Source of the DNA: a virus
Lineage: Duplodnaviria > Caudoviricetes
IMG/VR virus record: IMGVR_UViG_3300044557_000107
Coordinates: 64,001 to 128,000 of that record
Length of the DNA stretch: 64,000 nucleotides
Reading direction: 5' to 3' (one strand)
The notes under the pieces were generated by a model. The model did no database searches, was not told the origin of the DNA, and saw only the letters and a program-made list of their open reading frames with translations. Below, piece by piece: positions 10,669-58,885 of this stretch. A program made the translations under genes and the position numbers. Each line of letters opens with the position of its first letter. Position 1 is the stretch's first letter.

Positions 10669-10696
10669 TTGACAATTTTGAATCCTATGCTATAAT
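10669..10696 (+). promoter_or_regulatory. sigmaA-type promoter for tnpB-1
   Basis: TTGACA-16 nt-TATAAT with extended TG. Confidence 0.7.
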
Positions 10697-10808
10697 ATAC
10701 TTATTACCAAGTTAGTTGAGAAAGCTTGGTATTTTAATGCCGAGATGAATCAACGTCTTGAGTGACCACCATTGTATTTTGTAATATAATTAGAAGAGGT
10801 GATAATTA

Positions 10809-11945
10809 ATGACTTTGAAAGGAATCAAACTAAGAATCTACCCTAATAGAGAACAACAATTAAAGATTAAACTTAACTTTGGATATAACAGATTTGTTTG
10901 GAATCAGATGTTAGACATGATGATTAAACGCTATGAAAATAATCCCGAAGCGCCTTTTCTGGGAGCCTATACCCTAGATAAACTATTACCAACCCTAAAA
11001 TGTGAATACCCATTCTTAAAAGATGCTGAATCTACCAGTCTTCAAAATACTAATCATGACTTGATTGAAGCTTATAAGAAATTCTTTAGAGAACACAAAG
11101 GATTTCCTAAGTTTAAATCACGTAAATTTCCTAAGCAGAGTTACCAATCAAAAATGGGAATTAGCAAGGCTTCAACAAATTATTTAAAGCTACCTAAGAT
11201 TGGTGTTGTTAAAGCCAAAGGACAAATACCAGACTGTAAAATTAATAGGGTTACTATCAGATTATCTGCCACAGGAAAATTCTATGTGGTTTTGTTAGTT
11301 GATACAGATATTAATAGTCTTCCTAAAACTAATAATGCCGTAGGCATTGACATGGGTGTAGCAGATCTGATGATTACTAGTGATGGTATTAAATATCCCA
11401 CGATTAGATTTGATAAACTCCTCAGTAAAAAGAAACATTATTGGGAGAAACGGTTAGCTAGACGTAGACTGCAAGCTAAGAAGGAAATAGCTTGGGATAA
11501 GCATAATAAAGTAGCAGAGCCACATGAATTAAGTGATTTCAAGAACTACCAAAAAGCTAAAACTATGGTTGCCAAGTATAATGAGAAAATAGCTAACCAG
11601 CGCAATGATTATCTTCATAAGTTAACTAAGTCTTTAGTAGAGCAGTATGATGTGATTAAGATTGAAGATTTGAAAGCCAAAAATCTTCTAAAGAATCACA
11701 AGCTCGCTAGAGCAATTGCTAACCAATCATGGAGAGAACTACGTACACAGTTAGAATATAAATGTGAATGGTATGGTAAACAACTAGTCATTGTTAACCC
11801 CAGAAAAACATCACAAATTTGCTCTAATTGTGGTTATGATGATGGTAAACACACATTGGATATTCGACAGTGGACATGTCCTATGTGTGGTACCCATCAT
11901 GATAGAGATATTAATGCTGCTAAGAACATCTTAGCTAGTGAATAA
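10809..11945 (+). CDS. tnpB: TnpB RNA-guided endonuclease (IS200/IS605 family), copy 1, no tnpA
   Basis: KLRIYP N-terminus; RuvC I GIDMG, RuvC II IEDL, Zn finger CSNC/CPMC, RuvC III DRDINAAKNI; all catalytic residues intact. Confidence 0.95.
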   Translation: MTLKGIKLRIYPNREQQLKIKLNFGYNRFVWNQMLDMMIKRYENNPEAPFLGAYTLDKLLPTLKCEYPFLKDAESTSLQNTNHDLIEAYKKFFREHKGFPKFKSRKFPKQSYQSKMGISKASTNYLKLPKIGVVKAKGQIPDCKINRVTIRLSATGKFYVVLLVDTDINSLPKTNNAVGIDMGVADLMITSDGIKYPTIRFDKLLSKKKHYWEKRLARRRLQAKKEIAWDKHNKVAEPHELSDFKNYQKAKTMVAKYNEKIANQRNDYLHKLTKSLVEQYDVIKIEDLKAKNLLKNHKLARAIANQSWRELRTQLEYKCEWYGKQLVIVNPRKTSQICSNCGYDDGKHTLDIRQWTCPMCGTHHDRDINAAKNILASE

Positions 11946-11967
11946 CCAATAAAGACAAAGACTAACA

Positions 11968-12080
11968 TGGGCTGGGGCAGCCCTTAGTAAATAGCCATAA
12001 CCTCTATTTAGTACTCTAGTAGTATTAAACAAGTATGTGGTGTTCCTAGAAACCTGTGTTTTTAAACACAGTGTAGTTCA
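11968..12080 (+). ncRNA. omegaRNA/reRNA scaffold of tnpB-1 (guide begins ~12081, TTTCGGACGAGCAACATC)
   Basis: Hairpin-rich region after tnpB ending in GTAGTTCA; covarying homologues at 39.0 and 39.6 kb; 5' end uncertain and may overlap the CDS. Confidence 0.8.
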
Positions 12081-15056
12081 TTTCGGACGAGCAACATCTC
12101 CCGAAAATTTACCCCACCAATAACTTGTAGTCGCATCAAATTTTGAAAGCCCTGTTGAAGTATTATCAGCAATACACATGTTATTACCGATATATATTCC
12201 TACATGCCCCCGGGTTCCACTAGTATTCCAGAATACCAAGTCACCTTCTTTAAGATTTTTCCAGACATCACTTTTATCGCTTCCACTAACATGAGACAAC
12301 ACGGAGCTACTCCACATACTGTTTGTAGTTCCAATAGTAGAACCTGTTAGTGGATCACCAATGTCTTTATATAACCAACACATTGTGGACGAGCAATCTG
12401 CACTGGCGCCCGTTGTTGAGAATATGTCTTGGCTACCCCTACCGGCTCCTATAACATACCTAATAGACCCTTGACCATTCTTATTATAATAGCTTGTGAT
12501 TTTGCTTACAGCCGCTTGCGCCGCTGCTGTACCAGACTTAGTAGACCCATCAGATGAACTTGAATCGCTAGAGGAGCTACTAGACTCATCAACAGACCAT
12601 GCCATATTACTAAAGGTAGCTTCACCCATTAGTCCTCCTTGGAAGTCTGATGATTGCCCCCATAGGTTATTAAACCGATATTGGCCACTTTGGGGAAGAC
12701 CTCTAGTAACACCAAGGGTAGTTTCCCAACCGGACTGAAATGAGAAGCTATGAGAGACGGATTCAATATAAAATTCAAAGGTATCATTATAGTTATTTAG
12801 ATATACAGTAACACGGTCCCCAACTCGGTAATCTGGATGACCTACGACAACAATATCTCCGCTATAAAAATTAGGGTTATCGGCATACCAATTGAATAAT
12901 CTTTGTGTAAACTTTTTAAGGGAACTAGCAGAGCTATCTATTGTAGATGCATTAGTTGTTTTTGTAGTAGAACCTTTTACAATACTTTCTAGGTCCTTTT
13001 TAGATAGCTTATTACCTCCGTTATGATACTGATCCCATATAGCTAGTAATTCATTATCATCTACATTTTTTAGGGTGGACTTAGCTAATTTCATATAGTC
13101 TACAATGTCGCCTTTAGAATCACTAATAACCTTTTTTACATTAGACACATTTAAGGCTTTAGTTCCGGTATTAGCATATCCCCCACCTTGTGAAATGTGC
13201 ATATCGTCATTCCACTTAGTAGTAGGAAGTTGAAAGTCATTGTTGATATAATCATTAATTAAATTTACAGCCTCTTGTGCTGAAATATTATTAGCACTAT
13301 TTGTAAGGTTTTGAGCATACGTAGCTTTATTAATTCGTAATAAATTACGGTCAATAGCATTTAAGAAGGCTACAGTTGAATCATACGTGTAGGTAGTACC
13401 ATGTTCAGCACTATCCGTGTCACCTTTACTATAATCAGAATTACTACCGGATTCTGCATCACCCATGCTGAGATACTGATTAGTTTTTTCAAGGTAGCTG
13501 TACCCATACTGATCAACTAAAGTTTGATTATACTGGGGGTAGGACCCAATTGCTCCTGAGTTATTAGTGATACTGAACAAAGAGTAACTATCAGGATTTA
13601 CGTTGAATACAGAGTAAGCCTGTGCATTTGACTGGTTAACAGTAACGTTTTTTATAGACCCAGAATCAATCTCAATAGTCTCTAAAGAATTCCAATCATC
13701 AGGATCGAAAGGGGTTCTACGTACATTTACATGACACAGCCCCGTAGACTCAAATTCAAAATAGAGTTCATTGAAAGGTTCTACACGAATATCATCCATA
13801 AGTTCTAATAGAGATCCACTAAATGAGGTGTACTGAGTAGAGTCTGTTAGTTTTTCATCAACATCCCAACTTTGAAAATTACTGGTATCTAAAAAGTCAA
13901 AGATAGTTTTGGAGCCGTTATCATAACTATAGTTTATATAGGGCTTGAAACGTTCTATAATTTCATTTTCAATGGTAGCTACATCATTACCCATAAATGC
14001 AACGCCAGTACTATTCTCTTTTTCGGAGTCGATAGAACTAGAAGAAGCATCTACATTTCCTGATGTAGACCCACTGCTATCGCTACTACCAGAAGATGAA
14101 CTACTATCATCACCGGAAGAATCTCCGCCATTATACTCAGCGTAACCAGTTTCTAGGTTTTTTGTGTAATGAGCTAAGTTATCTCCAAAGTAGTTATGTG
14201 CTTTAAGAATTTGGGCAAATTGAGGAATACTAGTAGCATTTTGAACACCATCATTATAGAGAGTTGTGGCATAATCACTAGCATAAGCACTCCATGAAGA
14301 ATATTTATAGCTAGGTCCTACATGCATACCTGTTAGATTTTTAGAAGAGTATGCGGGGGCTCCTGGTTGGTCTTTTCCTCCGGATTCTGCCATGATTTGA
14401 GCAAATACATATCCCGACTTAAGCCCAATAGCTTTAGTGACGGCTTTATCAATAGCACGTGCAATAGGCTTACCGGGTCCTGCGTTAGTATCTACATTGA
14501 CCGTTATTTTTTTACCCGAGGTTGACGAAGATGTATTTGTAGAACTATCATCGCTATCACCAGATGAGCTAGATTCTGCTTCATAATCCGCATTTGTATC
14601 CCATAGCCATCCCATATTTGAAAGGTTAACTTGGGCTTCTTCAATAAGTCCTAATTTATACTGAGAGAATACTTTAGATAAGCTTTGACCCGTGATTTGA
14701 TAATATAAATTGTTATTTTCAAATTCGCCAATAATGTCTATTTCAGAAACCATGCCCACGAAAATAACATTATTATTAACAGTACCAATATTAGCACTTC
14801 CAACACCCATATTTGGATCTGCTCGAATAATAATGATATCGTTTTCATTAACAACATAATCCCACCGGTAGTCTCCAGCAAGCATAACAGAAAATGCAGG
14901 GGAATCCAACGACATATCATTTGAAGTACTCAATCCAAGCAATCCTTTAGTTAAGGTGTCATTTGATAGGGTGTCGTCTGAATAACTAATCTGGTACCCA
15001 TTAGACGAACTATGGATTTCTAATGAAAAGTTAGGAAACATTATGTTGTTTGCCAA
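12078..15056 (-). CDS. Baseplate hub / tail-associated lysin with lysozyme-like and C-terminal NlpC/P60 domains
   Basis: AQIMAESGG lysozyme-like motif; ADCSS...GDLVFW...GHVGIYIG NlpC/P60; EFYIESVSHSF hub motif. Confidence 0.85.
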   Translation of the reverse strand: MANNIMFPNFSLEIHSSSNGYQISYSDDTLSNDTLTKGLLGLSTSNDMSLDSPAFSVMLAGDYRWDYVVNENDIIIIRADPNMGVGSANIGTVNNNVIFVGMVSEIDIIGEFENNNLYYQITGQSLSKVFSQYKLGLIEEAQVNLSNMGWLWDTNADYEAESSSSGDSDDSSTNTSSSTSGKKITVNVDTNAGPGKPIARAIDKAVTKAIGLKSGYVFAQIMAESGGKDQPGAPAYSSKNLTGMHVGPSYKYSSWSAYASDYATTLYNDGVQNATSIPQFAQILKAHNYFGDNLAHYTKNLETGYAEYNGGDSSGDDSSSSSGSSDSSGSTSGNVDASSSSIDSEKENSTGVAFMGNDVATIENEIIERFKPYINYSYDNGSKTIFDFLDTSNFQSWDVDEKLTDSTQYTSFSGSLLELMDDIRVEPFNELYFEFESTGLCHVNVRRTPFDPDDWNSLETIEIDSGSIKNVTVNQSNAQAYSVFNVNPDSYSLFSITNNSGAIGSYPQYNQTLVDQYGYSYLEKTNQYLSMGDAESGSNSDYSKGDTDSAEHGTTYTYDSTVAFLNAIDRNLLRINKATYAQNLTNSANNISAQEAVNLINDYINNDFQLPTTKWNDDMHISQGGGYANTGTKALNVSNVKKVISDSKGDIVDYMKLAKSTLKNVDDNELLAIWDQYHNGGNKLSKKDLESIVKGSTTKTTNASTIDSSASSLKKFTQRLFNWYADNPNFYSGDIVVVGHPDYRVGDRVTVYLNNYNDTFEFYIESVSHSFSFQSGWETTLGVTRGLPQSGQYRFNNLWGQSSDFQGGLMGEATFSNMAWSVDESSSSSSDSSSSDGSTKSGTAAAQAAVSKITSYYNKNGQGSIRYVIGAGRGSQDIFSTTGASADCSSTMCWLYKDIGDPLTGSTIGTTNSMWSSSVLSHVSGSDKSDVWKNLKEGDLVFWNTSGTRGHVGIYIGNNMCIADNTSTGLSKFDATTSYWWGKFSGDVARPK

Positions 15057-15071
15057 ATTACACCCTTCTTT

Positions 15072-22175: not shown

Positions 22176-22186
22176 AAATAATATAG

Positions 22187-27367: not shown

Positions 27368-27445
27368 TTAGTTTATTTGCACCTTTCATTAATTAATTAA
27401 TTACTTTCAGAAATAATATAGCTAGTTGCATGGTATAGAGGTTGT

Positions 27446-29366: not shown

Positions 29367-29410
29367 AATACTGAGGTGTGGTCCTGCTTTTCAGAAATAA
29401 TATAGTGCTA

Positions 29411-31423: not shown

Positions 31424-31488
31424 AATTCTACCTCTTTTGCTAAAATATTATTAGTTCTTACAATAATAATATAGTTTTCACTTAATTT

Positions 31489-34527: not shown

Positions 34528-34615
34528 ATATATTCAACTACCTTTATTTAATATTTTCGTCTAGTTTCAGTAATAATATAGGTTTTGCGAGGATAACTAC
34601 ATTATTATTGAAATA

Positions 34616-35347: not shown

Positions 35348-35437
35348 AAATACTAAAGGAGTTCCTAAAAAGGGGCTCTTTTTTAGTATAATTAAATAGC
35401 AACAGCTATATTATACATGTAAGGTGGTGAAAATGGC

Positions 35438-38890: not shown

Positions 38891-39104
38891 TTGACATTCT
38901 GTTTAACTACTAGTATACTAAGAACCATAAAGAACTTAGGTAACCATAGATGCGAAAACCAAGTATCTTAATAAGTTACTTAAGGATCTTTAAGTAAACT
39001 GGGCTGGGACAGCCCTTAGTAAATAGCTGTAACCTATAGATACTTTAGAGTATCCAAGTACGCAGTGTTCCTAGAAGCTCGTCACTTTAGTAACGAGCAG
39101 TTCA
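38891..39104 (+). ncRNA. Stand-alone omegaRNA cassette A (promoter + scaffold; guide from ~39105 CTGCCCACCAGTACCTCC)
   Basis: TTGACA-17-TATACT promoter; 39000-39104 is homologous to the tnpB-1 omegaRNA with compensatory changes and ends AGTTCA. Confidence 0.8.
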
Positions 39105-39273
39105 CTGCCCACCAGTACCTCCTGTCAAGGGTTATTGAAAACTGGTGTAAAACTAATATGTCGCGTCCAGTAATATGACTGGGGTGGGATGACTAAGGGT
39201 TGACACCTAACAAGACTGTCCGTTATCCTACATATTAGCAGGTAACCTTTGAGAGGCTTTGGGTTACCACAAT

Positions 39274-39527: not shown

Positions 39528-39740
39528 TTGACATTCTGTTAACTAGGGGTATACTAAAAACTATAAAGAACTTAGGTAACCATAGATGCGAAAACCAAGT
39601 ATCTTAATAAGTTACTTAAGGATCTTTAAGTAAACTGGGCTGGGACAGCCCTTAGTAAATAGCTGTAACCTCTATGTGCTTTAGGGTACTCAAGCATGCA
39701 GTGTTCCTAGAAGCCCGTTACTTTAGTAATGAGTAGTTCA
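39528..39740 (+). ncRNA. Stand-alone omegaRNA cassette B (promoter + scaffold; guide from ~39741 CGGAGGACATATAGTTTG)
   Basis: Near-duplicate of cassette A from GTTGACA to AGTTCAC, then sequences diverge completely. Confidence 0.8.
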
Positions 39741-39755
39741 CGGAGGACATATAGT

Positions 39756-39911
39756 TTGAAATTAGATACGGATAAATTATGCCAGGCTATTGAAGATCTG
39801 GGATATACACCAGAGTTAAACTATAGTAATCCCGGAATAGAAGTTGATGGGAAGCATATAGACTGGGAAGATATTGGAACAGTATTAGATGTAACTTCAA
39901 AAGTAGTATAA
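39756..39911 (+). CDS. Small acidic hypothetical protein (51 aa)
   Basis: RBS GGAGG then TTG; MKLDTDKLCQAIEDLGYTPE...; ORF-track start 39729 lies inside the omegaRNA. Confidence 0.55.
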   Translation: MKLDTDKLCQAIEDLGYTPELNYSNPGIEVDGKHIDWEDIGTVLDVTSKVV

Positions 39912-45036: not shown

Positions 45037-45877
45037 TGGATACTTAATTGTTAGTGATATTCATGGAAATTATCAAGCTCTTAAGCACATGGTTGATATT
45101 CCAGAGTTCTCAAATTCTAAGATTATTTTTGATGGAGATTACATCGATGGCTATGGAGTTAATGATTCTGATAAAGTAGTAGACTTTATTGCAGATCAGT
45201 ACCAGCGTAATAATGCTACAGTTCTGCCGGGGAACCATGAATTACTATTATATAAGTATATCTATGGTGAACGAAGAGACTGGGAATTATATAAAGCTAA
45301 TGGAGGGAAGCGTACAGTAAAGTCCTTCCTAGGAGAAGCTACTCGTAGCTCGGTTTCTAATAAGGTAGCACTAAGGGATAATAAATATTGGAATCAACTA
45401 GATTCTATGATGGATCACTGTTTTGACATTCGAGATACTGTAGTAATGTATGAAGACTCTAAACTGATTACAGTCCATGCAGGTTTAAGTTATATTGCTG
45501 AGGATTACCATAATACCAACTTGTGGGATAGCTTATGGATGCGAGAGGATTATTTCTATGGACTTAATACGAAGTACCATAATGATAACTACTTTGCACG
45601 TAATAAGTTTCACAAGCCCATTGTGGTAGGACATACTCCCACGTGTACTTTAGAAGGTATCTTACCTACAGGAACTCAGTTACACTATACTAGGGGTGAT
45701 TTAGAGTGTCCCGTGGTAGTATCTAAGTATGAAGATGAGGAACCACGATTCTTTATTGACGGAGGGAGCCATGGAGCTACCAATTCATTAAACGTTCTCT
45801 ACTATGAAAGCGAAGATAACTACGGAGCTTACAAGCTAACTCCGGATGGTCTTACAGAAGGGGAGATTGTGAGCTAG
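45029..45877 (+). CDS. Calcineurin-like metallophosphoesterase (Ser/Thr phosphatase family)
   Basis: SDIHG, GDYID, GNHE, VHAG, GHTP motifs. Confidence 0.9.
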   Translation: MNNGYLIVSDIHGNYQALKHMVDIPEFSNSKIIFDGDYIDGYGVNDSDKVVDFIADQYQRNNATVLPGNHELLLYKYIYGERRDWELYKANGGKRTVKSFLGEATRSSVSNKVALRDNKYWNQLDSMMDHCFDIRDTVVMYEDSKLITVHAGLSYIAEDYHNTNLWDSLWMREDYFYGLNTKYHNDNYFARNKFHKPIVVGHTPTCTLEGILPTGTQLHYTRGDLECPVVVSKYEDEEPRFFIDGGSHGATNSLNVLYYESEDNYGAYKLTPDGLTEGEIVS

Positions 45878-46020
45878 TCAATTGCCCTACTAAAGTAGGA
45901 AGCTTGTAACTCAATCCCATAGGGGTAGTGGTATTAACGTTCTATAGAACTTCCACTTAAGGTTACATCATCGGGTGATTGACAGCACCCGTTTAACTAT
46001 TAGAATATGTCCAACAGTTA
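45877..46020 (-). ncRNA. omegaRNA/reRNA scaffold of tnpB-2 (guide reads into 3' end of phosphatase gene)
   Basis: Minus strand: GGGTG-CTGTCAAT-CACCC hairpin, terminal hairpin CCTAC-TTTA-GTAGG, ends CAATTGAC; TCAA/TTGA pseudoknot possible. Confidence 0.72.
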
Positions 46021-47208
46021 TTATTTAGTAATTTTAGTTGTATCTCCAGTTACCCAGTTAGTTCCTAAGTATTGAATATTCATAGCACCAATGCGGTCAT
46101 CATTAGACTTATAACCACAGTTGGCACACTGGTACTCATGAATATCATGTTTTCTGTTATTTTTATTGACAGATCCACATTTAGGACAACGCTGGCTGGT
46201 ATACTGAGCACTAACCTTAATAACTTTAGAACCATTAAGTTCTGCTTTATAGGTTAGAAATTGCTCAAACTGGTAGAAAGCCCAGCTAACCTGCTCGTAA
46301 CGATTTGTTTTAGCAACTTTCTCCGTAGCAAATCGAACATTGGTTAAGTCTTCTAATACAAAGAGAGTGTCTTTACCATATTTATCAGTGAGTGTCTTAG
46401 TTATTCGATGATTAATATCACTCATCCAGCGGTTTTCTCGCTGACCAATGGCTTTAAGTCTTCTTTTAGCAGACTTAGTACCCTTACTTTGTAATTGTTG
46501 TCTTAACTTCTTGTACTTTCTACGTTTTGCTGTAATAGCTTTACCATCTATAAAGGAAGTTTTACCTTTTTCATCATAAGTGGTTGCTAAAAAGCGTAGA
46601 CCTCTATCTATGCCAACTACATGTTTCAAGTCATCTTTTTCAAAGATACGAGGTTCTACAGTAGCAGAGATATGCAAGAAGTAATGTCCATATGATTTAA
46701 CAAGTTTAGCAGTGCCTAATTTACCATCTAAGTATTGTTCAAAGCCCTTCATAGAAAAACCCATAATTTCACGGTTACCTAAGGTATTAAGAGATAGCTT
46801 ACCATTCTTAAATGACCAGTCACGTATAGATACTAAATCACACTGAGGTCTTTTAAAGCTAATAGGCTTTTGTAACCATGATAGGTCACGCTGAGCGGTA
46901 TACCAAGTATCAGTGTTGTTATCTTTATAGTGGTATGGCTCTTGTTTAAGCTGTGTTTCTACAGTTCTATACCTAGCAATAACTGTTTTAAAGACAGATT
47001 GTGTCATTTGTGCCTTAAGACCAAACTTGTCCCTAACCTTATGATACAAATCTTTATTAATATCTTTTTGCTTAGGTATAAAGTTATGGTCAAAGTAGTA
47101 CTTAGATACTAAATTACAGGCATTCCTATACTGTTGCATAGTAGCTAGTAATAAGTTACCTTGTTCAGATGTAGGATATATTCTTGCTTTAATAGTTACA
47201 GTTGTCAT
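46021..47208 (-). CDS. tnpB: TnpB RNA-guided endonuclease, copy 2, no tnpA
   Basis: IKARIYP; GIDRG, LEDL, CPKC/CANC, NDDRIGAMNI; start ATG 47208 after RBS AGAGGTG (track gives 47232). Confidence 0.93.
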   Translation of the reverse strand: MTTVTIKARIYPTSEQGNLLLATMQQYRNACNLVSKYYFDHNFIPKQKDINKDLYHKVRDKFGLKAQMTQSVFKTVIARYRTVETQLKQEPYHYKDNNTDTWYTAQRDLSWLQKPISFKRPQCDLVSIRDWSFKNGKLSLNTLGNREIMGFSMKGFEQYLDGKLGTAKLVKSYGHYFLHISATVEPRIFEKDDLKHVVGIDRGLRFLATTYDEKGKTSFIDGKAITAKRRKYKKLRQQLQSKGTKSAKRRLKAIGQRENRWMSDINHRITKTLTDKYGKDTLFVLEDLTNVRFATEKVAKTNRYEQVSWAFYQFEQFLTYKAELNGSKVIKVSAQYTSQRCPKCGSVNKNNRKHDIHEYQCANCGYKSNDDRIGAMNIQYLGTNWVTGDTTKITK

Positions 47209-47235
47209 TTGTGTTTCACCTCTTCCCTTCACTAT

Positions 47236-47244
47236 ATAATATAG
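47236..47244 (-). promoter_or_regulatory. Phage late-promoter motif CTATATTAT upstream of tnpB-2
   Basis: Identical to the motif before the capsid, protease, portal, sheath and spike units. Confidence 0.6.
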
Positions 47245-47312
47245 CCGAGTATTTTAGTGAAGTATAGAGTATTAAAATGTTATAATAATTAGAAAGGAAG
47301 TGCACTCGTTTA

Positions 47313-47510
47313 ATGAATAAAAATTTGAGGACTGAAAAGCAAATTGAAGAGACATTTGATAATATTCTACAGTTAGTAGATGACTCACTGGATGCTATGG
47401 AAGAATATAAGGATTCTAAGAATAGTAAACAGCAAGATCTGTATAGACTTTTACAGTTTAACTTAAATGCAGTTCGATACACGATAGATACTGCTATTAA
47501 GGTGAAGTAA
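47313..47510 (+). CDS. Hypothetical protein
   Basis: 65-aa ORF, RBS AAAGGAAG. Confidence 0.55.
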   Translation: MNKNLRTEKQIEETFDNILQLVDDSLDAMEEYKDSKNSKQQDLYRLLQFNLNAVRYTIDTAIKVK

Positions 47511-47532
47511 GTAAGTAAGTAAGTAAGTAAGT
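47505..47532 (+). repeat. (AAGT)7 microsatellite
   Basis: Seven perfect tetranucleotide units spanning a stop codon. Confidence 0.9.
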
Positions 47533-47828: not shown

Positions 47829-48015
47829 GAAACAATGTAGATAGAAGCTATGATTTAGTACCTGTTAAGCCTTGTGGGAGGTACTTAATGAGAGAAGTAT
47901 AAGAAAGGTCATTCAAACAAATTGGGTGATCTTTCTTATTTTGGGTGTTGACACTGAGCTAAATTGTGCTATTATAATAAATGTAAATAAATAAAAACGA
48001 AAGTAGGAATACAAA

Positions 48016-51000: not shown

Positions 51001-51480
51001 ATGCTGGAATCCTTAGAAGTAGAACGCGTAGGATATACAAAATCATTGAAAATTGGGGATATTGTTGGCTATCATTCAGCAACATATGTTCTTATTGAAA
51101 TATCCAGTGTAGCCGTTGTAAGTGCCCAGAATGGACCTTTAATGTCTGCTAAGATTATTGTTCAAAAAGTAGGATCTAAAATGATTTCAAAAAGTGGATT
51201 TCAGTCTTCTCAAATTTTAAAGGCAAGCATCAGGGAAGATACTCGTAAGCTTAGCAATAGACAGTTTACTAAAACAGTTGGAATAGTTGAAAGGAACCCA
51301 AATAGTGGGGTTCTATATAGGGTAGCTGGCATTGAAAAATTATACTATGACTTTACCGATCTCATTGTTAACTATTGGGTTCAGGAAATACCTGAATGGT
51401 CCGACCAGGAAATCAATAAGGTACTTAAAGAAGATAAACTAAACAAATTTAAAGTAATAAATGGAGGAAGTAATGAATAA
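51001..51480 (+). CDS. Hypothetical protein
   Basis: 159-aa ORF. Confidence 0.6.
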   Translation: MLESLEVERVGYTKSLKIGDIVGYHSATYVLIEISSVAVVSAQNGPLMSAKIIVQKVGSKMISKSGFQSSQILKASIREDTRKLSNRQFTKTVGIVERNPNSGVLYRVAGIEKLYYDFTDLIVNYWVQEIPEWSDQEINKVLKEDKLNKFKVINGGSNE

Positions 51481-52228
51481 TATTAAATGGAACTTTTTAG
51501 GTGAAGGGGTTAAGGAAACCTTCTCTCCTAAACGTAACTTAAAGGAATTTTTGGAGTTTAACTATAAAGAATACATTCTTATGGCACTTATGGTAGGTGC
51601 TTCAATCGTAGCATTCATCTACGGAAGGGACTATTCATGGGTTGGCTGGATTGGTGGTCTTACCAGTATCGCAACGGCCATGAGTCTAATTTTAGTTGAT
51701 AAAGGTAAGCTTACAAACTACATGTGGGGTACTATTGGTAGTATTGCATGGCTAGTAGCTTCCATTAATAACCGATTAATTGGTGATATTGGTTCCCAAG
51801 TATTCTATACAGTTATGCAATTTGTAGGTATCTATGTGTGGTATAAAGCACTTAAAGGTAACAAAGAAGGACAAGATACAGTTACTAGTAAGAAAATTAC
51901 ACTAGGTATGGCAATTTTAACATTCGTAGGTCTTCTAGTGCTATACAGTCTTAACGTTTGGATTAGCTACAAGCTACACGGTAATCAAATTTGGTTAGAT
52001 GCTACCCTTCTCCCACTAGGCATTGTTGGGCAAATTTTAATGACTTATGGATACCGGTCTCAATGGGTTGCTTGGATTACCTTAGATGCTATCAATGTTT
52101 GGATCTGGTTAGTTCAATTGCATAATGGCGGATCAGCCGCTACTAGTATGTTTGTGCTCCAAGTTATCATGTTAATCAATGCATTATATGGAACCTACTG
52201 CTGGTATAAGAAAGAAGGTTCTAATTAG
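51473..52228 (+). CDS. pnuC: PnuC-family nicotinamide riboside transporter
   Basis: 7-8 TM; KGKLTNY, Q..G...W, W..W...D (QWVAWITLD), NA.YG...W; adjacent to nadR. Confidence 0.85.
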   Translation: MNNIKWNFLGEGVKETFSPKRNLKEFLEFNYKEYILMALMVGASIVAFIYGRDYSWVGWIGGLTSIATAMSLILVDKGKLTNYMWGTIGSIAWLVASINNRLIGDIGSQVFYTVMQFVGIYVWYKALKGNKEGQDTVTSKKITLGMAILTFVGLLVLYSLNVWISYKLHGNQIWLDATLLPLGIVGQILMTYGYRSQWVAWITLDAINVWIWLVQLHNGGSAATSMFVLQVIMLINALYGTYCWYKKEGSN

Positions 52229-52785
52229 TGAAGCAACTAACCGATTCAGACTTTAAGATTGTATCAGATAAACTTATTAGTAAGTGTAGTCCTGCCTTTA
52301 GTCTTTATGAGGCTCAAATTGAAGGTCCTCAAGGAACATTTACTCGGCAGTATATTCACCATAATCCTGTTGTAGCTGTATACATTAAAAATAAGGGTAA
52401 AGTTCTTATCACTTCAGAATTTCGTATTGGCGTCAAAGGTGTTTCTAAAGGAATTCCCGCAGGATATATGGAAGAGGGGGAAACTCCAGAAGAAGCCGCT
52501 ATTCGAGAAGTTCAGGAGGAAACTGGAATCGTTTTATCTAAGAACAATTTAGTTAGCTTAGGAAGTTATAGATCCTCCGAAGGATTTACTGATGAGGTAG
52601 TTCACCTGTTTATTGTAGATACGGGAGATAGCTCTTTAAGTAATAAAGGTACACATTTTGATTCTGATGAAATGGTATCTTATAACTGGGTTAAAGAAAG
52701 CAACGAAATAGACGAGATATATGACAGTGGATTAGGATTCCCCTTAGCATCAGGGCTACTATGGAGTGCTATAAATAACGCTTAA
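52228..52785 (+). CDS. NUDIX hydrolase (ADP-ribose pyrophosphatase-like)
   Basis: PAGYMEEGETPEEAAIREVQEETG Nudix box; SEGFTDE. Confidence 0.88.
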   Translation: MKQLTDSDFKIVSDKLISKCSPAFSLYEAQIEGPQGTFTRQYIHHNPVVAVYIKNKGKVLITSEFRIGVKGVSKGIPAGYMEEGETPEEAAIREVQEETGIVLSKNNLVSLGSYRSSEGFTDEVVHLFIVDTGDSSLSNKGTHFDSDEMVSYNWVKESNEIDEIYDSGLGFPLASGLLWSAINNA

Positions 52786-52812
52786 ACTCATTTAGTTGGA
52801 AGGAATATTAAG

Positions 52813-53943
52813 ATGAAAGAATTAATTACAAAGAATCGCTTACACGGAGATAATATTGGAGTATTTTTTGGCACATTCTCTCCCTATCACATTGGGCACT
52901 TACAAGATCTTTATAAAGCATTAGCTGTTAATGATGGTGTTGTTTTAGTTGTTAGTGGATACGATAATGACCGAGGAGATAAAATTGGTCTTCCATTGTA
53001 TCGCCGTTTCCGATATCTTCGAGAGTTTTTTGCAGATGAACCCAATGTAGTTGTAGCTATGCTAGACGAGAATAAAATTCCACGGTATCCAGATGGGTGG
53101 GTTCCTTGGTTAAATAGACTGGAAGAAATTGTAAAGACCGCAGTTCCTGAATATGATAAAACAAATATTACGTGTTACTCTGGTGAAAAAGAATACACGG
53201 ATATGATGAACAAGCTGATTCCATCATGGAATATTAAAACATTTGACCGTACAGATCTACCTATCTCTGCTACTATGATTCGTAAGGAGCCTTTCCGATA
53301 CTGGAATTTAATTAATAAGGTATACCGCCGTCACTTTACTTTTAAAGTCCTTGTAGCAGGTGCAGCGTCTACTGGGAAGTCTACGTTAGTTAAGCACTTA
53401 GCGCGTTCACTTGGAGCCCCCTTTAGCACTGAGTACGCACGGGACTATGAAGAAGACTATAATCTAACTGATGCAGAATTAACAGTTAATGATTATACCC
53501 ATTTCTTTCAGGGACAGTATGAGGCAAACCAAAAAGAAATTAATAGTCCTTCAAATCAAGGAGTAGTTTTCTGTGATACCGATGCCATGGTTACAGAGGT
53601 ATATTCTAAGATGTACTTACCCAAAGATGACTATAAGAAACTTCATGGTATCTACAATAATGTAATTAAAAATGAAGAATGGGATTTAATTTTGTTGGTT
53701 CCTCCTGTGACTAAGTATGTAGACGACGGGTTCCGCAATATGGACTGGGCGGATAGCACTGATGAGTTCCACAAAGAACTGGTTGCAGAAATTGAGAAGC
53801 AAGGATTTGGGGATAAAGTAGTCTTGCTAGACGATCAAGGTAACGATAGTGATCCTCAAGGGTTCCTAGCTCGATATAATCATGCCATGGAAATTCTAAA
53901 AGGTAGCGCAGATATTGGCAAGCAGTATTTCCTAGAAAATTAA
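52813..53943 (+). CDS. nadR: NadR-type NMN adenylyltransferase / ribosylnicotinamide kinase (no HTH)
   Basis: FGTFSPYHIGH, ISATMIR, GAASTGKST Walker A, EYARDY, FCDTD, YVDDGFR. Confidence 0.92.
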   Translation: MKELITKNRLHGDNIGVFFGTFSPYHIGHLQDLYKALAVNDGVVLVVSGYDNDRGDKIGLPLYRRFRYLREFFADEPNVVVAMLDENKIPRYPDGWVPWLNRLEEIVKTAVPEYDKTNITCYSGEKEYTDMMNKLIPSWNIKTFDRTDLPISATMIRKEPFRYWNLINKVYRRHFTFKVLVAGAASTGKSTLVKHLARSLGAPFSTEYARDYEEDYNLTDAELTVNDYTHFFQGQYEANQKEINSPSNQGVVFCDTDAMVTEVYSKMYLPKDDYKKLHGIYNNVIKNEEWDLILLVPPVTKYVDDGFRNMDWADSTDEFHKELVAEIEKQGFGDKVVLLDDQGNDSDPQGFLARYNHAMEILKGSADIGKQYFLEN

Positions 53944-53952
53944 AATAGTCAG

Positions 53953-54005
53953 TTGACATAAGGATATCTTAGTGGTATCCTTATTTTAGTTAAATGAAAG
54001 AAGGA
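53953..54005 (+). promoter_or_regulatory. Repeated early promoter cassette, copy 2
   Basis: TTGACATAAGGATATCTTAGTGGTATCCTTATTTTAGTTAAATGAAAGAAGG. Confidence 0.8.
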
Positions 54006-54012
54006 ATATAAA

Positions 54013-54321
54013 TTGAATTACGTTAAATCAGTAGAAGCATGGGCTAAAATCCGAGGATTGGATAAGTCTAACAGTGACAAGCAAATGATTAAGCTCATGG
54101 AAGAGGTTGGAGAACTTGGAGAGGCGCATAATAAAGGATGGAAAGATAAGCAAATTGATAGTCTAGGCGATATCTTTGTAGTGCTTACAATTTATGCTTT
54201 ACAGAATGGGTTGTCATTAGAAGACTGTATTGCAGAAGCTTACAATACAATTAAGGACCGTGAAGGAAAAATGGTAGATGGCGTATTTGTTAAGGACGAA
54301 GATTTAGTAGAGGATAACTAA
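54013..54321 (+). CDS. MazG-like nucleotide pyrophosphohydrolase
   Basis: KLMEEVGEL...DSLGD...AYNTIKDREGKMVDGVFVK. Confidence 0.85.
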   Translation: MNYVKSVEAWAKIRGLDKSNSDKQMIKLMEEVGELGEAHNKGWKDKQIDSLGDIFVVLTIYALQNGLSLEDCIAEAYNTIKDREGKMVDGVFVKDEDLVEDN

Positions 54322-54923
54322 TGAATAATAGTGATAGCAAAGATAAATACCTTAGAAGCTTTACTTTTGTATCCCGTAATAAGGATAATAAGTCTCTATT
54401 AGAGCATAATATTGATTATAAACAGCGAAGTCATGGAATTGTGCTACACACAGATTACACTGGAATACTTCTCTGTGAGATACTTAACGAGAATTTTTGG
54501 GATAAAATAAAACCCTTATTTGATGAATTTGTACACCAAGGATTACCCGGAGAAGTATCTCGCTTGTACTGTGGTATCAATGTTATTGAAAAGTCTGTTG
54601 TTAAAAAGGATTTGCAACACTATCTGCTAGACAATGATGATGTTGATTTAACTAATATGAATGCTTTAATCGCTCGGCTAGTAGAAAAGGGGCATCCTAA
54701 AGCAACTAAACACTGGTTGTTTGATATTGATACTACAGACCAAGATACTGTAATGGAATTTGCTGCTCAAGTTCCATCGCGCAGTCAATTGTTTAGAACA
54801 TTGCATAACTATGCTGTTATTAGCGAACATGGATTTGATACTCGTGAGATACTTAAAAGATTCCCTTGTGTAACTTTGAAGAAAAACAGCCCTGTATTTG
54901 TATTATCTGGAATAAATAGCTAG
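54321..54923 (+). CDS. Hypothetical protein
   Basis: SRNKDN...WLFDID; function not assignable. Confidence 0.65.
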   Translation: MNNSDSKDKYLRSFTFVSRNKDNKSLLEHNIDYKQRSHGIVLHTDYTGILLCEILNENFWDKIKPLFDEFVHQGLPGEVSRLYCGINVIEKSVVKKDLQHYLLDNDDVDLTNMNALIARLVEKGHPKATKHWLFDIDTTDQDTVMEFAAQVPSRSQLFRTLHNYAVISEHGFDTREILKRFPCVTLKKNSPVFVLSGINS

Positions 54924-54943
54924 TAAAAGGGGTAATTAAGATA

Positions 54944-55396
54944 ATGAGTAATTACGTATTTTTAGTATCTACTAGCGTTGACGGGAGTAACCCGATGATA
55001 TTTACGGGGGACGCCCCACTAATTTCTTTAGCTCAGAGTATATCTGGAAGATGCACTCTATTTATTCAAAATGACGGAAGCTTTTCACCACATTACAATA
55101 CTCCCCAAGATAGACGAGATGAGATGTGTGAGGATGTACTACAACGAGGCGTATCTTTCAAAGTAGCTTGTAGACGTAAAAGTTCTGTGCCTGAGGAGTT
55201 TAAGTATGTTAAAATAATAAGGGTTTCCAGAGCTATCCAGCTCATTAACAGATTACCTTTAGATAGGCATCCCAACGAGAAAAAGTTAATATCCTATAGA
55301 ACTGCAAGCCGTTCTTTTGAGAATCGAATATACTTTCTTAGAAGTCAACGTGAAGGTCAGGCAGGAATACACAAGGGGAGGGAACTAAATAGTTGA
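54944..55396 (+). CDS. Hypothetical protein (paralog of 60292-60792)
   Basis: 150-aa ORF, RBS AAGGGGT. Confidence 0.6.
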   Translation: MSNYVFLVSTSVDGSNPMIFTGDAPLISLAQSISGRCTLFIQNDGSFSPHYNTPQDRRDEMCEDVLQRGVSFKVACRRKSSVPEEFKYVKIIRVSRAIQLINRLPLDRHPNEKKLISYRTASRSFENRIYFLRSQREGQAGIHKGRELNS

Positions 55397-56076
55397 TTTA
55401 TATAATTGGATCTATTGGAGCCGGTAAAAGTAGTCTAACAGAACTCCTTGCAAAGGATTTAAACGTACCTTATTACTTGGAGTCGGTAGATAATGGACTT
55501 ATCAAAGGAATGCTGAGAAAATTCTATTCCGCGGGAAAGGAGAGCCGCTCACAAGTCTCTGCTATGTTGCAGGTAGCTTTTCTAACAGTACGCTATCAGC
55601 AGTTAAAGCAGGCAATTGCAGAACCAAATGCAGTTTTAGATTCTAATTTGTTATCCGATCATATCTTAGCTAGGAACCTATATGACCGAGGTGAAATGGA
55701 TAAAGAAGCTTATAACGTGTACCTTACGTTAAACCAAGAAATGCAGTCAAATGTTAATGGGAGTCCTTGGAATGGTTTTCCAGATCTTATCGTGTATATT
55801 GATATAGATCCTGAGCACGAGATTGAGATGATACAAAGTCGCAGTCGGGACATGGAAGACATTCGTAAGGACGCAGGACTTATTGATTATTATCGGTCAG
55901 TTAACGACGCGTATACTCGGTGGTACAATGGTTTCACACAGGCTCCAGTAATACGCATAGACCGTGAAAAGTACGATTTTGTAAATAATAAAGATGATCA
56001 GAAGCAAGTGCTTATAGATATTAAGAACAAGCTGTATGAACTAGGAAAATTAGATAATAAGGAGATTTCAATTTAA
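55393..56076 (+). CDS. Deoxynucleoside kinase (dAK/dGK family)
   Basis: GSIGAGKSS, Q..FL..RYQQ, PDLIVYID, RSRDME. Confidence 0.9.
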   Translation: MIYIIGSIGAGKSSLTELLAKDLNVPYYLESVDNGLIKGMLRKFYSAGKESRSQVSAMLQVAFLTVRYQQLKQAIAEPNAVLDSNLLSDHILARNLYDRGEMDKEAYNVYLTLNQEMQSNVNGSPWNGFPDLIVYIDIDPEHEIEMIQSRSRDMEDIRKDAGLIDYYRSVNDAYTRWYNGFTQAPVIRIDREKYDFVNNKDDQKQVLIDIKNKLYELGKLDNKEISI

Positions 56077-56849
56077 TGGATAACACAAGTAAATTAGTAG
56101 ATAACACAGGAAAATTCACAGGGAATTACTTTCAATGGCTAAAGGTACAGCTAACTGGCTGGGATAGTCTTCCATGGGCGCTATTTGGTTTTGCCTTAGG
56201 TATGCAGGGAATGAGTTTTGCGTTAAACCCAAGTACATGGATTAGTGTAGTATCACTAATTGCGACGTTATTTGGTAGTCTATGCACTTGTGCTATGATG
56301 GCCGCGGGGAAAGATCCTATTACAGGAAAACGTGTAACCTCAAGAGCTATTAATGGAGCTTTAGGTGCAGTTTCCGTTATTGGGTTTGTAATTGTCAACG
56401 CTACTATGGGCCACTGGTGGAGCGTTCTTGATCAGCTAGTCTTCTTTGTACTGATTGACGTAGAACTCATGTTTACATGGCGCACATGGGGCCGTGGCAA
56501 GAATACTGAAATTAAGAAGCTATCTAATAAAGGATATGTCTATGCTACTGTAGCAATTCTTGTTGCTTGGCTAGTCTTGTACTTTGTGGGTATCCAACTA
56601 GGAGATCAGCAACCTATTTTTGACAGTCTCGTACTGGCTATGGGTGCCGTAGCGTCTTGGCTATGTTTCCGCCGGTATTCCTTAACTTACAAACTATGGC
56701 TACTTGCAGATGTCGCACAAATTGCTTTATTCGTAGCTACTATGATCCAATCAGGTGTGACTGGTGCTTCAATGGCTCTGGCATTAAACTATGCGTTCTA
56801 TTTGCTTACCAGTATTGGAGGCTTAGTAAACTGGAAGCCTACTAAATAA
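56076..56849 (+). CDS. Second Pnu-family transporter (possibly deoxynucleoside-specific)
   Basis: Multi-TM; FDSL..., YKLWLLAD; translationally coupled to the dNK gene. Confidence 0.75.
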   Translation: MDNTSKLVDNTGKFTGNYFQWLKVQLTGWDSLPWALFGFALGMQGMSFALNPSTWISVVSLIATLFGSLCTCAMMAAGKDPITGKRVTSRAINGALGAVSVIGFVIVNATMGHWWSVLDQLVFFVLIDVELMFTWRTWGRGKNTEIKKLSNKGYVYATVAILVAWLVLYFVGIQLGDQQPIFDSLVLAMGAVASWLCFRRYSLTYKLWLLADVAQIALFVATMIQSGVTGASMALALNYAFYLLTSIGGLVNWKPTK

Positions 56850-56854
56850 CACTA

Positions 56855-56930
56855 AAAGAAGTTACTCAAAATAAATTGGGTGACTTCTTTATTTTTGTGT
56901 TGACAACGAGTATCAGTGTGCTAGTATAAT
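56855..56930 (+). promoter_or_regulatory. Terminator + sigmaA promoter cassette driving the Cas12f-like gene
   Basis: AAAGAAGTTACTCAA...TTGGGTGACTTCTTT hairpin, then TTGACA (56900) and TG-C-TAGTAT/TATAAT; same layout as 47901-47980. Confidence 0.7.
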
Positions 56931-56958
56931 AAGTATACAAAGTAAAGGGGAAATAGAT

Positions 56959-58347
56959 ATGAAAGAAAAGTTAAACAAGGGGATTAAGGTCAGAATATTT
57001 CCTAATGAAGAGCAAGTGGGACAAATTAGATTATCATTTATGTGGGCACGGAACTTTTATAACTATCTGGTTGAATACCAGAAAGACTACACCAAAGCTA
57101 TCTGGATTATGCGAGATCGAGAAGGTGGATATAGAAAAGATAAGAATGGTAAAGTTATACTATTTGACAAGAAGGGTAATGAAAGTAAAACTGGTAAACC
57201 TCAGTTTAAGTATAAGGGAAATGTATATCTAAGTAAGTTTGACTTGATGAAGTTAGCTTCACCTTATCGAAAGTTTCATAAAGATGCAGGTGCAAGTAAG
57301 GTGGACAGCCACGTTTATGAAATGACGGCCACTTCATTTTATCAAGCGATTCAAAATCAATATAATCCTAGAATGATTAATGCAAAAGCACCTAAGAAGC
57401 ATAAATGGGTTACTTCATATACTAGTAGATACACACAAGCGTCTAAGTTTTCATCAACAAAGAAAAGTGGTTCTGTTCCAAGCATGTATAGTGTAACAAA
57501 ACATTGGGTAAAGGTACCAAAGTTAGGCATGGTTAAATACTCTGGTTCACAATCATTGAAAAATATTAAGCCAAAGAACTTTACTATTACAGAGGATAAA
57601 ACAGGTAAATTCTACATGAGTATTATTATTGAATATCATAAGGATATTAAATCTGTTAAGCCTGTAAAAGTAGTTGGGATTGACTTAGGGTTAGATACTC
57701 TAGCTATTACTAGTGAGGGTAAAAAATATAAGATTATTCCTTTCACTAAGAATCATGAAAGAACCCTAGCAATTAAGAGCAGAAAAGCAAGTAAGAGAAG
57801 ATTATTCATGGAAACGGTTATTGGATCTTCTAAGAATAAGGCAAAGCTGTTTCCACTTACTCAACATGATTTTCCTAGTGTTAATGAAGCATACAGGGGA
57901 AGAGCTTTAGTATATAAGCACACTGCAAATCAACGAAATAACTATCTTCATGAAGTAAGTAGAAGCATTGTAGATTCTGCTGATGCAGTGGTTGTAGAAG
58001 ACATTACCGCTAGTTTCATGATGAAGGGTGGTAAAAGTAAGAAAACAGGTCGTAAGACTAAGAATAAGAGCGCCAAGAGTGCTAGTAATGCTAGTTGGAA
58101 CAAGCTATTAGTATATCTAGAATACAAGTGTAAGGAAGATGGAAAACAGTTTATTAAAGTAAGCAAAAACTATACTAGTCAGATTTGCCATGATTGTGGT
58201 TATTTATATGAAAACTTGGGTGTACCAAATGGTGGTGACAATCGTTCTGTTCGTGAATGGGACTGCCCTAAATGTGGGAAACATCATGATCGTGACATTA
58301 ATGCGGCTATCAATATTAAAAATAGAGGGTTAGAAGTTATTGATTAA
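56959..58347 (+). CDS. CRISPR-adjacent TnpB-derived RuvC nuclease (Cas12f/TranC-like), 462 aa
   Basis: KVRIFP; GIDLG, VEDI, CHDC/CPKC, DRDINAAINI intact; longer than the other two TnpBs; followed by leader and array. Confidence 0.85.
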   Translation: MKEKLNKGIKVRIFPNEEQVGQIRLSFMWARNFYNYLVEYQKDYTKAIWIMRDREGGYRKDKNGKVILFDKKGNESKTGKPQFKYKGNVYLSKFDLMKLASPYRKFHKDAGASKVDSHVYEMTATSFYQAIQNQYNPRMINAKAPKKHKWVTSYTSRYTQASKFSSTKKSGSVPSMYSVTKHWVKVPKLGMVKYSGSQSLKNIKPKNFTITEDKTGKFYMSIIIEYHKDIKSVKPVKVVGIDLGLDTLAITSEGKKYKIIPFTKNHERTLAIKSRKASKRRLFMETVIGSSKNKAKLFPLTQHDFPSVNEAYRGRALVYKHTANQRNNYLHEVSRSIVDSADAVVVEDITASFMMKGGKSKKTGRKTKNKSAKSASNASWNKLLVYLEYKCKEDGKQFIKVSKNYTSQICHDCGYLYENLGVPNGGDNRSVREWDCPKCGKHHDRDINAAINIKNRGLEVID

Positions 58348-58362
58348 TTTTAAAAATAAGTA

Positions 58363-58391
58363 TTGACATAAGGATTATTAAGAGGTATTAT
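58363..58391 (+). promoter_or_regulatory. sigmaA promoter for tracr/leader and array
   Basis: TTGACA-17-TATTAT 15 nt after the nuclease stop codon. Confidence 0.75.
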
Positions 58392-58397
58392 AATAGA

Positions 58398-58650
58398 TGT
58401 AAGTAAGTCATAAGGTTAATCAAGCCTACTAAGAAGTGCAAGTCTTCTAATGACTATATGGGGTTTCTCAATCCTTGGTTAACTACGGGTTCCGTGAGCT
58501 ATAGATGTTTTATAGACACTACTCAGCATACCCTAAAAACATGATAGGTGTTAATCAAAGCTCAATTTATTGAGTGGGTAATAGCCTATTGAGACCTAGA
58601 CATTTTAATAGTATAAGTATACTAAATAGGGTTTATTAGTCTTAATAACT
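58398..58650 (+). ncRNA. Putative tracrRNA / scaffold-leader
   Basis: ~250 nt non-coding with several hairpins; TTCTCA (58465-70) and CATACCCTA (58527-35) are complementary to the repeat 3' end TAGGTATGAGA. Confidence 0.55.
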
Positions 58651-58885
58651 CCCTAGTATGTACTCAAAATGTACTAGGTATGAGATAATTGTAACATAAA
58701 TTTAATTTACTACTTACCCTAGTATGTACTCAAAATGTACTAGGTATGAGATGGGCGGTTCACTGGTGTTTATGTACAGTGACTCTAGTATGTACTTAAA
58801 ATGTTACTAGGTACAAGACATTATGTTTGATACGTATTTTAAGGCGTTCCCCTCGTATATATCCAAAATGTGCTAGGCATGAGGT
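58651..58885 (+). CRISPR. Mini CRISPR array: 4 repeats (36/36/37/36 nt), 3 spacers of 30 nt
   Basis: CCCTAGTATGTACTCAAAATGTACTAGGTATGAGAT exact at 58651 and 58717, degenerate at 58783 and 58850; hairpin CCTAGTA/TACTAGG; spacers unique. Confidence 0.88.

Follow-up and report, generated by a model that had tools for sequence, protein, structure and literature searches.

The DNA analysed here, which we call the window, comprises bases 64001-128000 (64,000 nt) of the IMG/VR virus record IMGVR_UViG_3300044557_000107, a complete genome of 139,820 bp that has direct terminal repeats. It contains three genes for TnpB, the RNA-guided nuclease of insertion sequences (IS) of the IS200/IS605 type, in the open reading frames (ORFs) 10809-11945 (+), 46021-47232 (-) and 56959-58347 (+). 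An earlier note on this DNA had named them tnpB-1, tnpB-2 and the array-associated homologue, for which we also use the short names T2, T4 and T3, and the presence of three TnpB genes was borne out by the Pfam domains HTH_OrfB_IS605, OrfB_IS605 and Cas12f1-like_TNB in each product. The loci differ in what is left of a transposon. tnpB-1 lies in a complete IS, tnpB-2 has lost the distal part of its left end and has a candidate late promoter motif in the remainder, and T3 is devoid of IS ends and precedes a short array of repeats and spacers.

The three proteins are indeed divergent, with a pairwise identity of 31% between T2 and T3, 27% between T2 and T4 over about half of the length, and 27% between T3 and T4. 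The RuvC triad, which the earlier note had described as intact in all three, and the zinc finger were found in each protein by alignment to ISDra2 TnpB and AsCas12f and in a joint alignment. The catalytic residues are D181/E286/DRD365-367 in T2, D242/E347/DRD444-446 in T3 and D209/E294/DD378-379 in T4, the latter counted from the GTG start. The ratio of non-synonymous to synonymous substitution rates (dN/dS), a check proposed in the earlier note, was 0.10-0.14 in every comparison made (0.14 for T4), indicating strong purifying selection. From these data T2, T3 and T4 are most likely all active RNA-guided nucleases that cut double-stranded DNA. Paralogues within the genome differ by dS values of 0.7-1.8 and no near-identical pair exists; they are therefore old (dS 0.7 and 1.8), which argues against a recent transposition burst. 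The earlier note had spoken of three stages of TnpB domestication. Retention of IS features does differ between the loci, but an identity of only 27-31% rules out successive stages of one lineage and thus a single process. Judged from the sequences, T2, T3 and T4 are independent lineages that form a descriptive gradient of transposon-feature loss.

tnpB-1 (10809..11945, +) encodes an ISDra2-like TnpB of 378 aa with intact RuvC D/E/D residues and zinc finger, whose alignment with ISDra2 TnpB spans the full length (E 2.6e-58; PDB 8h1j). The element was delimited by genome self-comparison and end alignment. Its left end (LE; 10701..10794, +) has a TnpA-type hairpin and is conserved 5' of the paralogue T1 and in one gene-less element, whereas its right end coincides with the scaffold of a cis omegaRNA (11891..12081, +) and terminates with GTTCAT at 12081. 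According to TnpB biology, the presumed guide of this RNA (12082..12101, +) is flanking DNA, namely the 3' end of ORF 12078-15056; the guide is thus the end of the flanking gene, as in any IS. The terminal three bases of the right end provide the stop codon of this convergent 992-aa ORF (window 12078-12081), so that the IS lies within, or has replaced, the extreme end of a structural gene. A TTAY-like motif is found just outside the LE in the seven copies with a recognisable left end and is likely the target-adjacent motif (TAM) of the family; the sequence immediately 5' of the tnpB-1 LE agrees with it. Directly upstream of the LE is a sigmaA-type promoter (TTGACA-16-TATAAT; 10669..10697, +) that is part of a terminator-promoter cassette (10621-10704). 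A paralogue of this cassette elsewhere in the genome drives an ordinary gene, and from its sequence the cassette at tnpB-1 belongs to the phage, the IS having inserted into it.

The T2 family is large, with more than 5,900 proteins at E below 1e-60. Relatives that are about 80% identical occur in Levilactobacillus brevis, Secundilactobacillus, Lentilactobacillus and siphophage CL1, and the family is abundant in Lactobacillaceae chromosomes at this level of identity. For comparison we used three large IMG/VR phage records, G001 (3300044557_000104), G002 and G003. Their T2-type genes are 70-80% identical, compared to 25-47% amino acid identity of the backbone proteins, and lie at non-syntenic sites; the tnpB-1 site is empty in G001, where the two tail genes found on either side of T2 in this phage are direct neighbours. 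Conservation above that of the backbone together with non-syntenic positions is the signature of a mobile element and not of a retained host gene. On this comparative evidence the tnpB-1 locus is an IS200/IS605 element of the TnpB-only kind that is still complete; it is an ordinary IS, albeit adapted to the phage.

The omegaRNA of the tnpB-1 family was modelled from 25 right-end regions, eight from this genome and 17 from IMG/VR. The consensus fold has 31 pairs, of which 21 show compensatory changes on both sides. The covariance model has exactly three matches in the window (11891-12081, 38916-39105 and 39552-39741; E 1e-37 to 3e-32), each preceding a different guide, in full agreement with the one cis and two trans omegaRNAs described earlier. 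The two in trans are stand-alone genes located among tRNA genes. Gene 1 (38891..39125, +; 155.5 bits, E 2.6e-33) consists of a promoter (38891-38919), a scaffold (38916-39105) and a guide (39106-39125); gene 2 (39528..39761, +; 150.9 bits, E 2.8e-32) has its promoter at 39528-39555, its scaffold at 39552-39741 and a different guide at 39742-39761. In both, the promoter is a consensus TTGACA-17-TATACT, and neither tnpB nor an LE hairpin is present. Three further gene-less omegaRNA elements outside the window retain a left-end-type hairpin; the two window copies have the promoter in its place. Rfam has no family that matches the RNAs of any of the three tnpB loci.

Gene-less IS200/IS605 derivatives known as palindrome-associated transposable elements (PATEs) encode omegaRNAs that need TnpB in trans (Meers et al. 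2023, PMC10055086). The two window copies and the three others resemble them in being about 250 nt long and gene-less, with a full covarying scaffold, a right end and guides of their own. Unlike PATEs, the two in the window have exchanged the left-end hairpin for a promoter, and their organisation suggests guide-RNA genes that are fixed in place, not PATEs that can be mobilised. As a side observation, an omegaRNA-like match lies under a tRNA-Gly annotation in Lactobacillus phage 3-521 (MK504444.1, 13583-13707), about 2 kb from a tnpB, and phage Lbab1 has five places matching the omegaRNA; stand-alone omegaRNA genes in tRNA regions may thus be common in this group of phages.

tnpB-2 (46021..47208, -) encodes 395 aa from the ATG at 47208, its ORF being open to a GTG at 47232, and is closest by sequence to Cas12f-type structures (E 1e-20). 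Homology to three viral contigs spans 47264 to 45889, and the flanks are unrelated. The 3' 250 nt, comprising the omegaRNA and the right end (45889..46139, -), which terminates with TTGAC at 45889, are conserved and show compensatory changes against four homologous copies (five copies in total), as expected from the cis omegaRNA that had been assigned to this gene; the presumed guide follows at 45869-45888 (-). The left end is shortened (47209..47264, -), and only its proximal part is homologous to relatives. In the relatives L008 and L009 the left end measures about 135 nt and includes a hairpin that matches in type the one at the right end; of this left end, T4 shares no more than the proximal ~55-75 nt and lacks the distal TnpA-type hairpin.

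Within this shortened left end, 28 nt upstream of the ATG, is the motif CTATATTAT (47236-47244, -), at a position where the relatives differ in sequence. It occurs eight times in the window, compared to 2.2 expected, and none of 100 shuffles reached eight. The other seven copies (10593-10601, 22178-22186, 27413-27421, 29397-29405, 31466-31474, 34573-34581 and 35406-35414) lie 22-54 nt upstream of the starts of late or structural genes, and CTATATTAT is a candidate for the -10-like element of phage late promoters. This enrichment upholds the late promoter motif that the earlier note had assigned to tnpB-2. The tnpB-2 family is likewise a large Lactobacillaceae IS family that is also mobile between phages, its TnpBs being 70-80% identical where backbone proteins reach 25-47% and lying at non-syntenic sites; relatives of the same length and 91-92% identity are on record, some of them on 148-153-kb contigs. 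A near-consensus sigmaA promoter is found antisense within the omegaRNA region of tnpB-2 (window 45979-46006, +); it arises from the conserved TGTCAA of the RNA and may be accidental.

T3 (56959..58347, +) encodes 462 aa with RuvC and zinc finger intact and an insertion of ~70-85 aa in the N-terminal (recognition, REC) part. An AlphaFold model (predicted local distance difference test, pLDDT, 78) has its closest folds in ISFba1 and ISDra2 TnpB, followed by LaTranC, and the insertion is poorly ordered at about residues 55-100. T3 has only nine recorded near relatives, which fall into two clades (92-98% and 74% identical) and are followed by proteins of no more than 40% identity; the triad and four cysteines are invariant across the nine. 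In IMG/VR, JGI metagenomes and GTDB genomes no relative above ~38% identity was found. No IS ends were found at T3. Where the LE would be stands a cassette (56855..56927, +) of a terminator (56855-56890) and a sigmaA-type TTGACA promoter (56900-56927), which has a paralogue at 47915-47995 and corresponds to the early promoter cassette of the earlier note.

A second sigmaA-type promoter (TTGACA-17-TATTAT; 58363..58391, +), 15 nt past the T3 stop codon, would drive a leader and the array. The leader (58396..58650, +) is ~255 nt long, contains no ORF and is a putative scaffold resembling a trans-activating CRISPR RNA (tracrRNA). The array (58651..58885, +) begins 304 nt past the gene and is composed of four 36-nt repeats (58651-58686, 58717-58752, 58783-58819 and 58850-58885, +) and three 30-nt spacers (58687-58716, 58753-58782 and 58820-58849, +). 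Repeats 1 and 2 are identical, repeats 3 and 4 are degenerate. The spacers are exactly 30 nt long and mutually unrelated; between spacers 1 and 2, 9 of 30 positions are the same, about as many as expected by chance.

What ties this array to an omegaRNA is an element in G001. There, directly past the right end of a T2-type IS, a stretch that is 95% identical over 102 nt to the leader (58514-58615) runs into the 3' end of the repeat; the alignment covers the final 13 nt, and by exact match 15 nt are shared, since the two preceding bases fit as well. Past the end of the repeat the G001 sequence is unrelated to the array and corresponds to a single guide. Since the homology to the leader continues into the 3' end of the repeat, the array is connected to an omegaRNA, and the G001 form implies that the repeat represents the 3' strand of the omegaRNA terminal stem plus an 8-nt tail before the guide, the leader representing the 5' strand. 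Compared to G001, this phage has 57 additional nt, made up of the leader's end, a short linker and repeat 1 in its 5' part, and one hairpin differs between the two by a compensatory pair. In the predicted fold, leader (58595-58632 being able to pair with the repeat) and repeat are joined in a long imperfect helix. The energy of the duplex alone is not significant when compared to shuffles and to the whole genome, and the argument for a tracrRNA thus rests on the G001 homologue. T3 was also considered to have a scaffold closely derived from the tnpB-1 omegaRNA, an idea that was dropped because the covariance model misses the T3 leader.

This arrangement is reminiscent of TranC, transposon-CRISPR intermediates (Jin et al., Cell 2025, as cited in bioRxiv 10.64898/2026.03.27.714800; LaTranC, PDB 9jfo/9jfq). 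TranC arrays have repeats of 32-38 bp in a median number of 4.5-5 and are not linked to adaptation genes, and one member, CauTranC9, is phage-borne (bioRxiv 10.64898/2026.03.27.714800). T3 is likewise of TnpB size and lies beside a short array of four 36-nt repeats without Cas1 or Cas2; its scaffold RNA is located between gene and array, the repeat would stem from the omegaRNA 3' end, and the REC region is expanded as in some TranC clades. In contrast to TranC, a separate promoter precedes the scaffold, which is predicted to share one transcript with the first repeat. Moreover, T3 resembles LaTranC weakly, in the C-terminal part alone (E 1e-12), and less than it resembles ISDra2 TnpB, which speaks for a separate lineage, LaTranC being the only TranC compared.

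The surrounding genome contains more of these elements. The window has a GC content of ~36% and four tRNA genes. Closest among public phages are the Lactobacillus/Levilactobacillus brevis myophages 3-521, 521B and ENFP1, with a nucleotide identity of only 66-70%; long blocks of structural genes on the minus strand and early/replication genes on the plus strand fit a Herelleviridae-like layout. Genome-wide, the TnpB zinc-ribbon family has seven matches, T2, T3 and T4 in the window and T0, T1, T5 and T6 outside of it. T0 is a sister copy of tnpB-1, 900 nt past the window end, and T1 is a T2 paralogue in which an internal deletion removed the first ~30 codons. T5 (genome 48706-49141) is a C-terminal fragment of 62 aa that starts directly past the right end of a gene-less omegaRNA element; a full-length relative (85% identical) is present in G002 (72276-73484), and T5 is an old TnpB gene split by a PATE-like insertion. 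T6 (genome 131253-132524), 3.2 kb past the window end, is a full-length TnpB-like gene. In the joint alignment the first two of its three RuvC residues are replaced (D to V and E to N), by which it is a nuclease-dead copy. IS elements were found nested within each other, and related phages have 3-7 TnpBs apiece. The absence of tnpA, noted earlier for the window, extends to the whole 139,820-bp genome, in which neither a Y1 transposase (TnpA) nor a serine recombinase was found; Cas1 and Cas2 are not encoded in the complete genome either.

Are the TnpB loci under the transcriptional control of the phage, as the earlier note had proposed? Near-consensus sigmaA promoters number 22 in the genome, 13 of them in the terminal early region. 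Six of the remaining nine are located at or within TnpB elements or their RNAs, that is at T2, at T0, at the two omegaRNA genes, at the T3 leader and, antisense, in the T4 right end; the promoter of the T3 gene itself is just under the threshold of this count. Promoter signals of the phage type precede all three tnpB genes. However, the similarity of T0 to IS copies in G002 starts upstream of its sigmaA promoter, which is apparently inside the IS left end, and what looks like control by the phage is therefore due in part to a promoter that belongs to the IS itself.

Concerning possible targets, all guides and spacers were compared with every collected locus and gave self-matches only, with no other place in the phage genome. 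Neither among 50,697 phage records nor in IMG/VR did any guide or spacer match another phage; blastn of leader plus array against phages gave noise only, and exact 20-mers of spacers 2 and 3 had no match in IMG/VR. One candidate was rejected: window 58750-58774, which runs from the final 3 nt of repeat 2 through the initial 22 nt of spacer 2, agrees in 25 of 25 nt with Enterococcus raffinosus megaplasmids. The match is in a gene for an elongation factor G (EF-G)-binding protein, has an E of ~0.01 and does not extend further, and is thus probably due to chance. The reverse case is more informative. The tnpB-1-type IS of G001 (L019:5092-5415) sits within a T3-type omegaRNA, and its guide matches the leader (window 58509-58538) in 24 of 25 nt directly after TTTAT, which fits the TAM. 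This phage therefore carries the uninterrupted, empty target site of the G001 IS. From the sequences compared, this is a hint at the situation that homing between co-infecting phages would require.

Taken together, we favour, with a probability of roughly 65%, an independent uptake of three TnpB lineages that differ in their remaining transposon content. According to this reading, tnpB-1 is a complete IS read from a strong sigmaA-type promoter, and the two stand-alone omegaRNAs could load its product or that of the sister TnpB in trans. tnpB-2, having lost the left-end hairpin, is probably no longer excisable, and the late-gene motif suggests that it is probably made late in infection. For T3, promoter, scaffold and array would constitute a TranC-like, miniature type V CRISPR system with several guides and without adaptation genes. 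We infer that tnpB-1 and tnpB-2 cut alleles devoid of the element, be it those of co-infecting relatives or those left when a host TnpA has excised it, and are then copied in by recombination (homing), and that T3 cuts foreign DNA. Domestication of tnpB-2 and T3 is plausible, and signs of fixation and re-wiring are credible for tnpB-2 and most of all for T3. The earlier statement that the nucleases are not retained as passive IS cargo is thus plausible for tnpB-2, with its hairpin loss and late motif, and for T3, which is free of IS ends, but finds no support at tnpB-1, which is a complete mobile IS.

Several observations weigh against this picture. For no spacer or guide was a convincing protospacer found among phages, plasmids and the collected loci. 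The pairing energy of leader and repeat was matched by 15 of 500 and 34 of 500 shuffles (3-7%), and the tnpB-1 omegaRNA covariance model gives no match to the T3 leader. The G001 element is an orphan, as no T3-type gene was found in the 87%-complete G001 record, and the polarity from a single guide to an array rests on two sequences, by which the ancestral form is not fixed. Finally, the late motif was recognised solely from its position and its enrichment.

For tnpB-1 the known counterpart is ISDra2-type TnpB with its omegaRNA (IS200/IS605; PDB 8h1j, 8exa), for which a role in homing has been shown (Meers et al. 2023, PMC10055086). The similarities are an end-to-end alignment with an intact triad, an omegaRNA that overlaps the gene's end and terminates at the right end, a guide taken from the flank, hairpins at both ends and a short 5' TAM; like most elements of this type, tnpB-1 is without TnpA. 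Unlike ISDra2, it is located in a genome of the virulent phage type that lacks any TnpA and stands behind a consensus sigmaA cassette, and its paralogues are old (dS 0.7-1.8), unlike fresh IS copies. A second parallel is provided by the free-standing homing endonucleases of T-even phages, such as SegF and SegB (reviewed in PMC13565253). Here, too, nuclease genes with their own promoters lie between conserved phage genes, and by analogy they would be expected to cut the allele of a co-infecting relative and to be copied in; the difference is that the target is chosen by an RNA guide and not by the protein.

It is tempting to go one step further and to see a distributed RNA-guided arsenal directed against co-infecting phages or mobile elements of the host, in which an early TnpB with dispersed guide genes, a late immobilised TnpB and a TranC-like system act side by side. 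This is a tentative idea that we consider possible but would not rely on. If it were true, T3 and the G001 remnant would capture the split of an omegaRNA into tracrRNA and CRISPR RNA (crRNA) inside a phage lineage and would support phages as a cradle for the origin of type V CRISPR systems.

A rival view, in which all three genes are selfish IS cargo moved by a host TnpA, with promoter motifs that came with the IS or arose by accident, an array piled up from right ends left behind by repeated insertions, and no benefit to the phage, appears unlikely to us. It is in line with the membership of tnpB-1 and tnpB-2 in large Lactobacillaceae IS families that are non-syntenic between phages, and the number of TnpBs in related phages (3-7 each), the decayed copies in this genome, the nesting of IS and the T0 promoter apparently inside its own IS left end all fit as well. 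It accounts poorly for T3, since IS ends are missing there and the exact 36/30-nt period, the unrelated spacers and the two identical repeats are unlike a random stacking of remnants. At tnpB-2 the left end has lost the hairpin and gained the 9-nt late motif, for which the chance of falling at this place is estimated at ~1e-3, and the two omegaRNA genes of the window have consensus TTGACA promoters and no left-end hairpin. Furthermore, near-identical copies, as expected after a recent transposition burst, are lacking in the genome (dS 0.7-1.8).

Less probable still is the assumption that all three are domesticated weapons of the phage, programmable equivalents of free-standing homing endonucleases that are under early or late control and exclude competitors. 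The promoter wiring and the purifying selection would be in line with this, although the latter is equally expected of a selfish homing element. Relatives of T3 and tnpB-2 with 91-93% identity in other samples, some on 148-153-kb contigs, hint at retention in sister phages, and the guide of the G001 IS, which matches the leader in 24 of 25 nt after TTTAT, indicates that such guides can address other phages. However, the IS ends of tnpB-1 are complete, its behaviour is that of a mobile element, its guide is the end of the flanking gene, and no guide or spacer of this phage matches another phage. We know of no phage TnpB of this group for which marker exclusion has been shown. Very improbable is, finally, that one or more of the three are RNA-guided binders or regulators like TldR or Cas12m that silence phage or host promoters instead of cutting: the same genome does retain T6, in which two of the three RuvC residues are exchanged although the gene is of full length, and the stand-alone guide genes lie in a regulatory-looking tRNA region, but all catalytic and zinc-binding residues are kept in the three window proteins and no guide matches elsewhere in the phage genome.

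With independent uptake of three lineages as the favoured reading, one genome presents TnpB in four states: as a full IS, as gene-less guide genes, as an immobilised late-type TnpB and as a TnpB with scaffold and array. Every state is already known individually; their co-occurrence makes this phage a compact natural test bed for two questions, whether the TnpBs of phages serve as RNA-guided nucleases in homing or in exclusion, and by which route an omegaRNA becomes a tracrRNA plus a CRISPR repeat. For the latter, the single-guide version in G001 offers a concrete before-and-after pair for the step from omegaRNA to array. T3 (462 aa) with its scaffold and 36-nt repeat is also a candidate for a compact editor from a lineage of nine known sequences.

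Some minor features of the window remain to be mentioned. Upstream of T3 lie two genes for PnuC-like nicotinamide mononucleotide transporters and a NadR-like gene with cytidylyltransferase-like and AAA_28 domains (window 51461-52228, 52813-53943 and 56076-56849), which suggest a phage module for the salvage of nicotinamide adenine dinucleotide (NAD); a deoxynucleoside kinase is encoded at 55393-56076. Beside tnpB-2, a perfect (AAGT)7 microsatellite (47505-47532) is located in the 58-nt gap separating two divergent small ORFs. A 57-nt unit is repeated 4.1 times with 96% identity at 7554-7788, inside a minus-strand ORF of 1575 aa.

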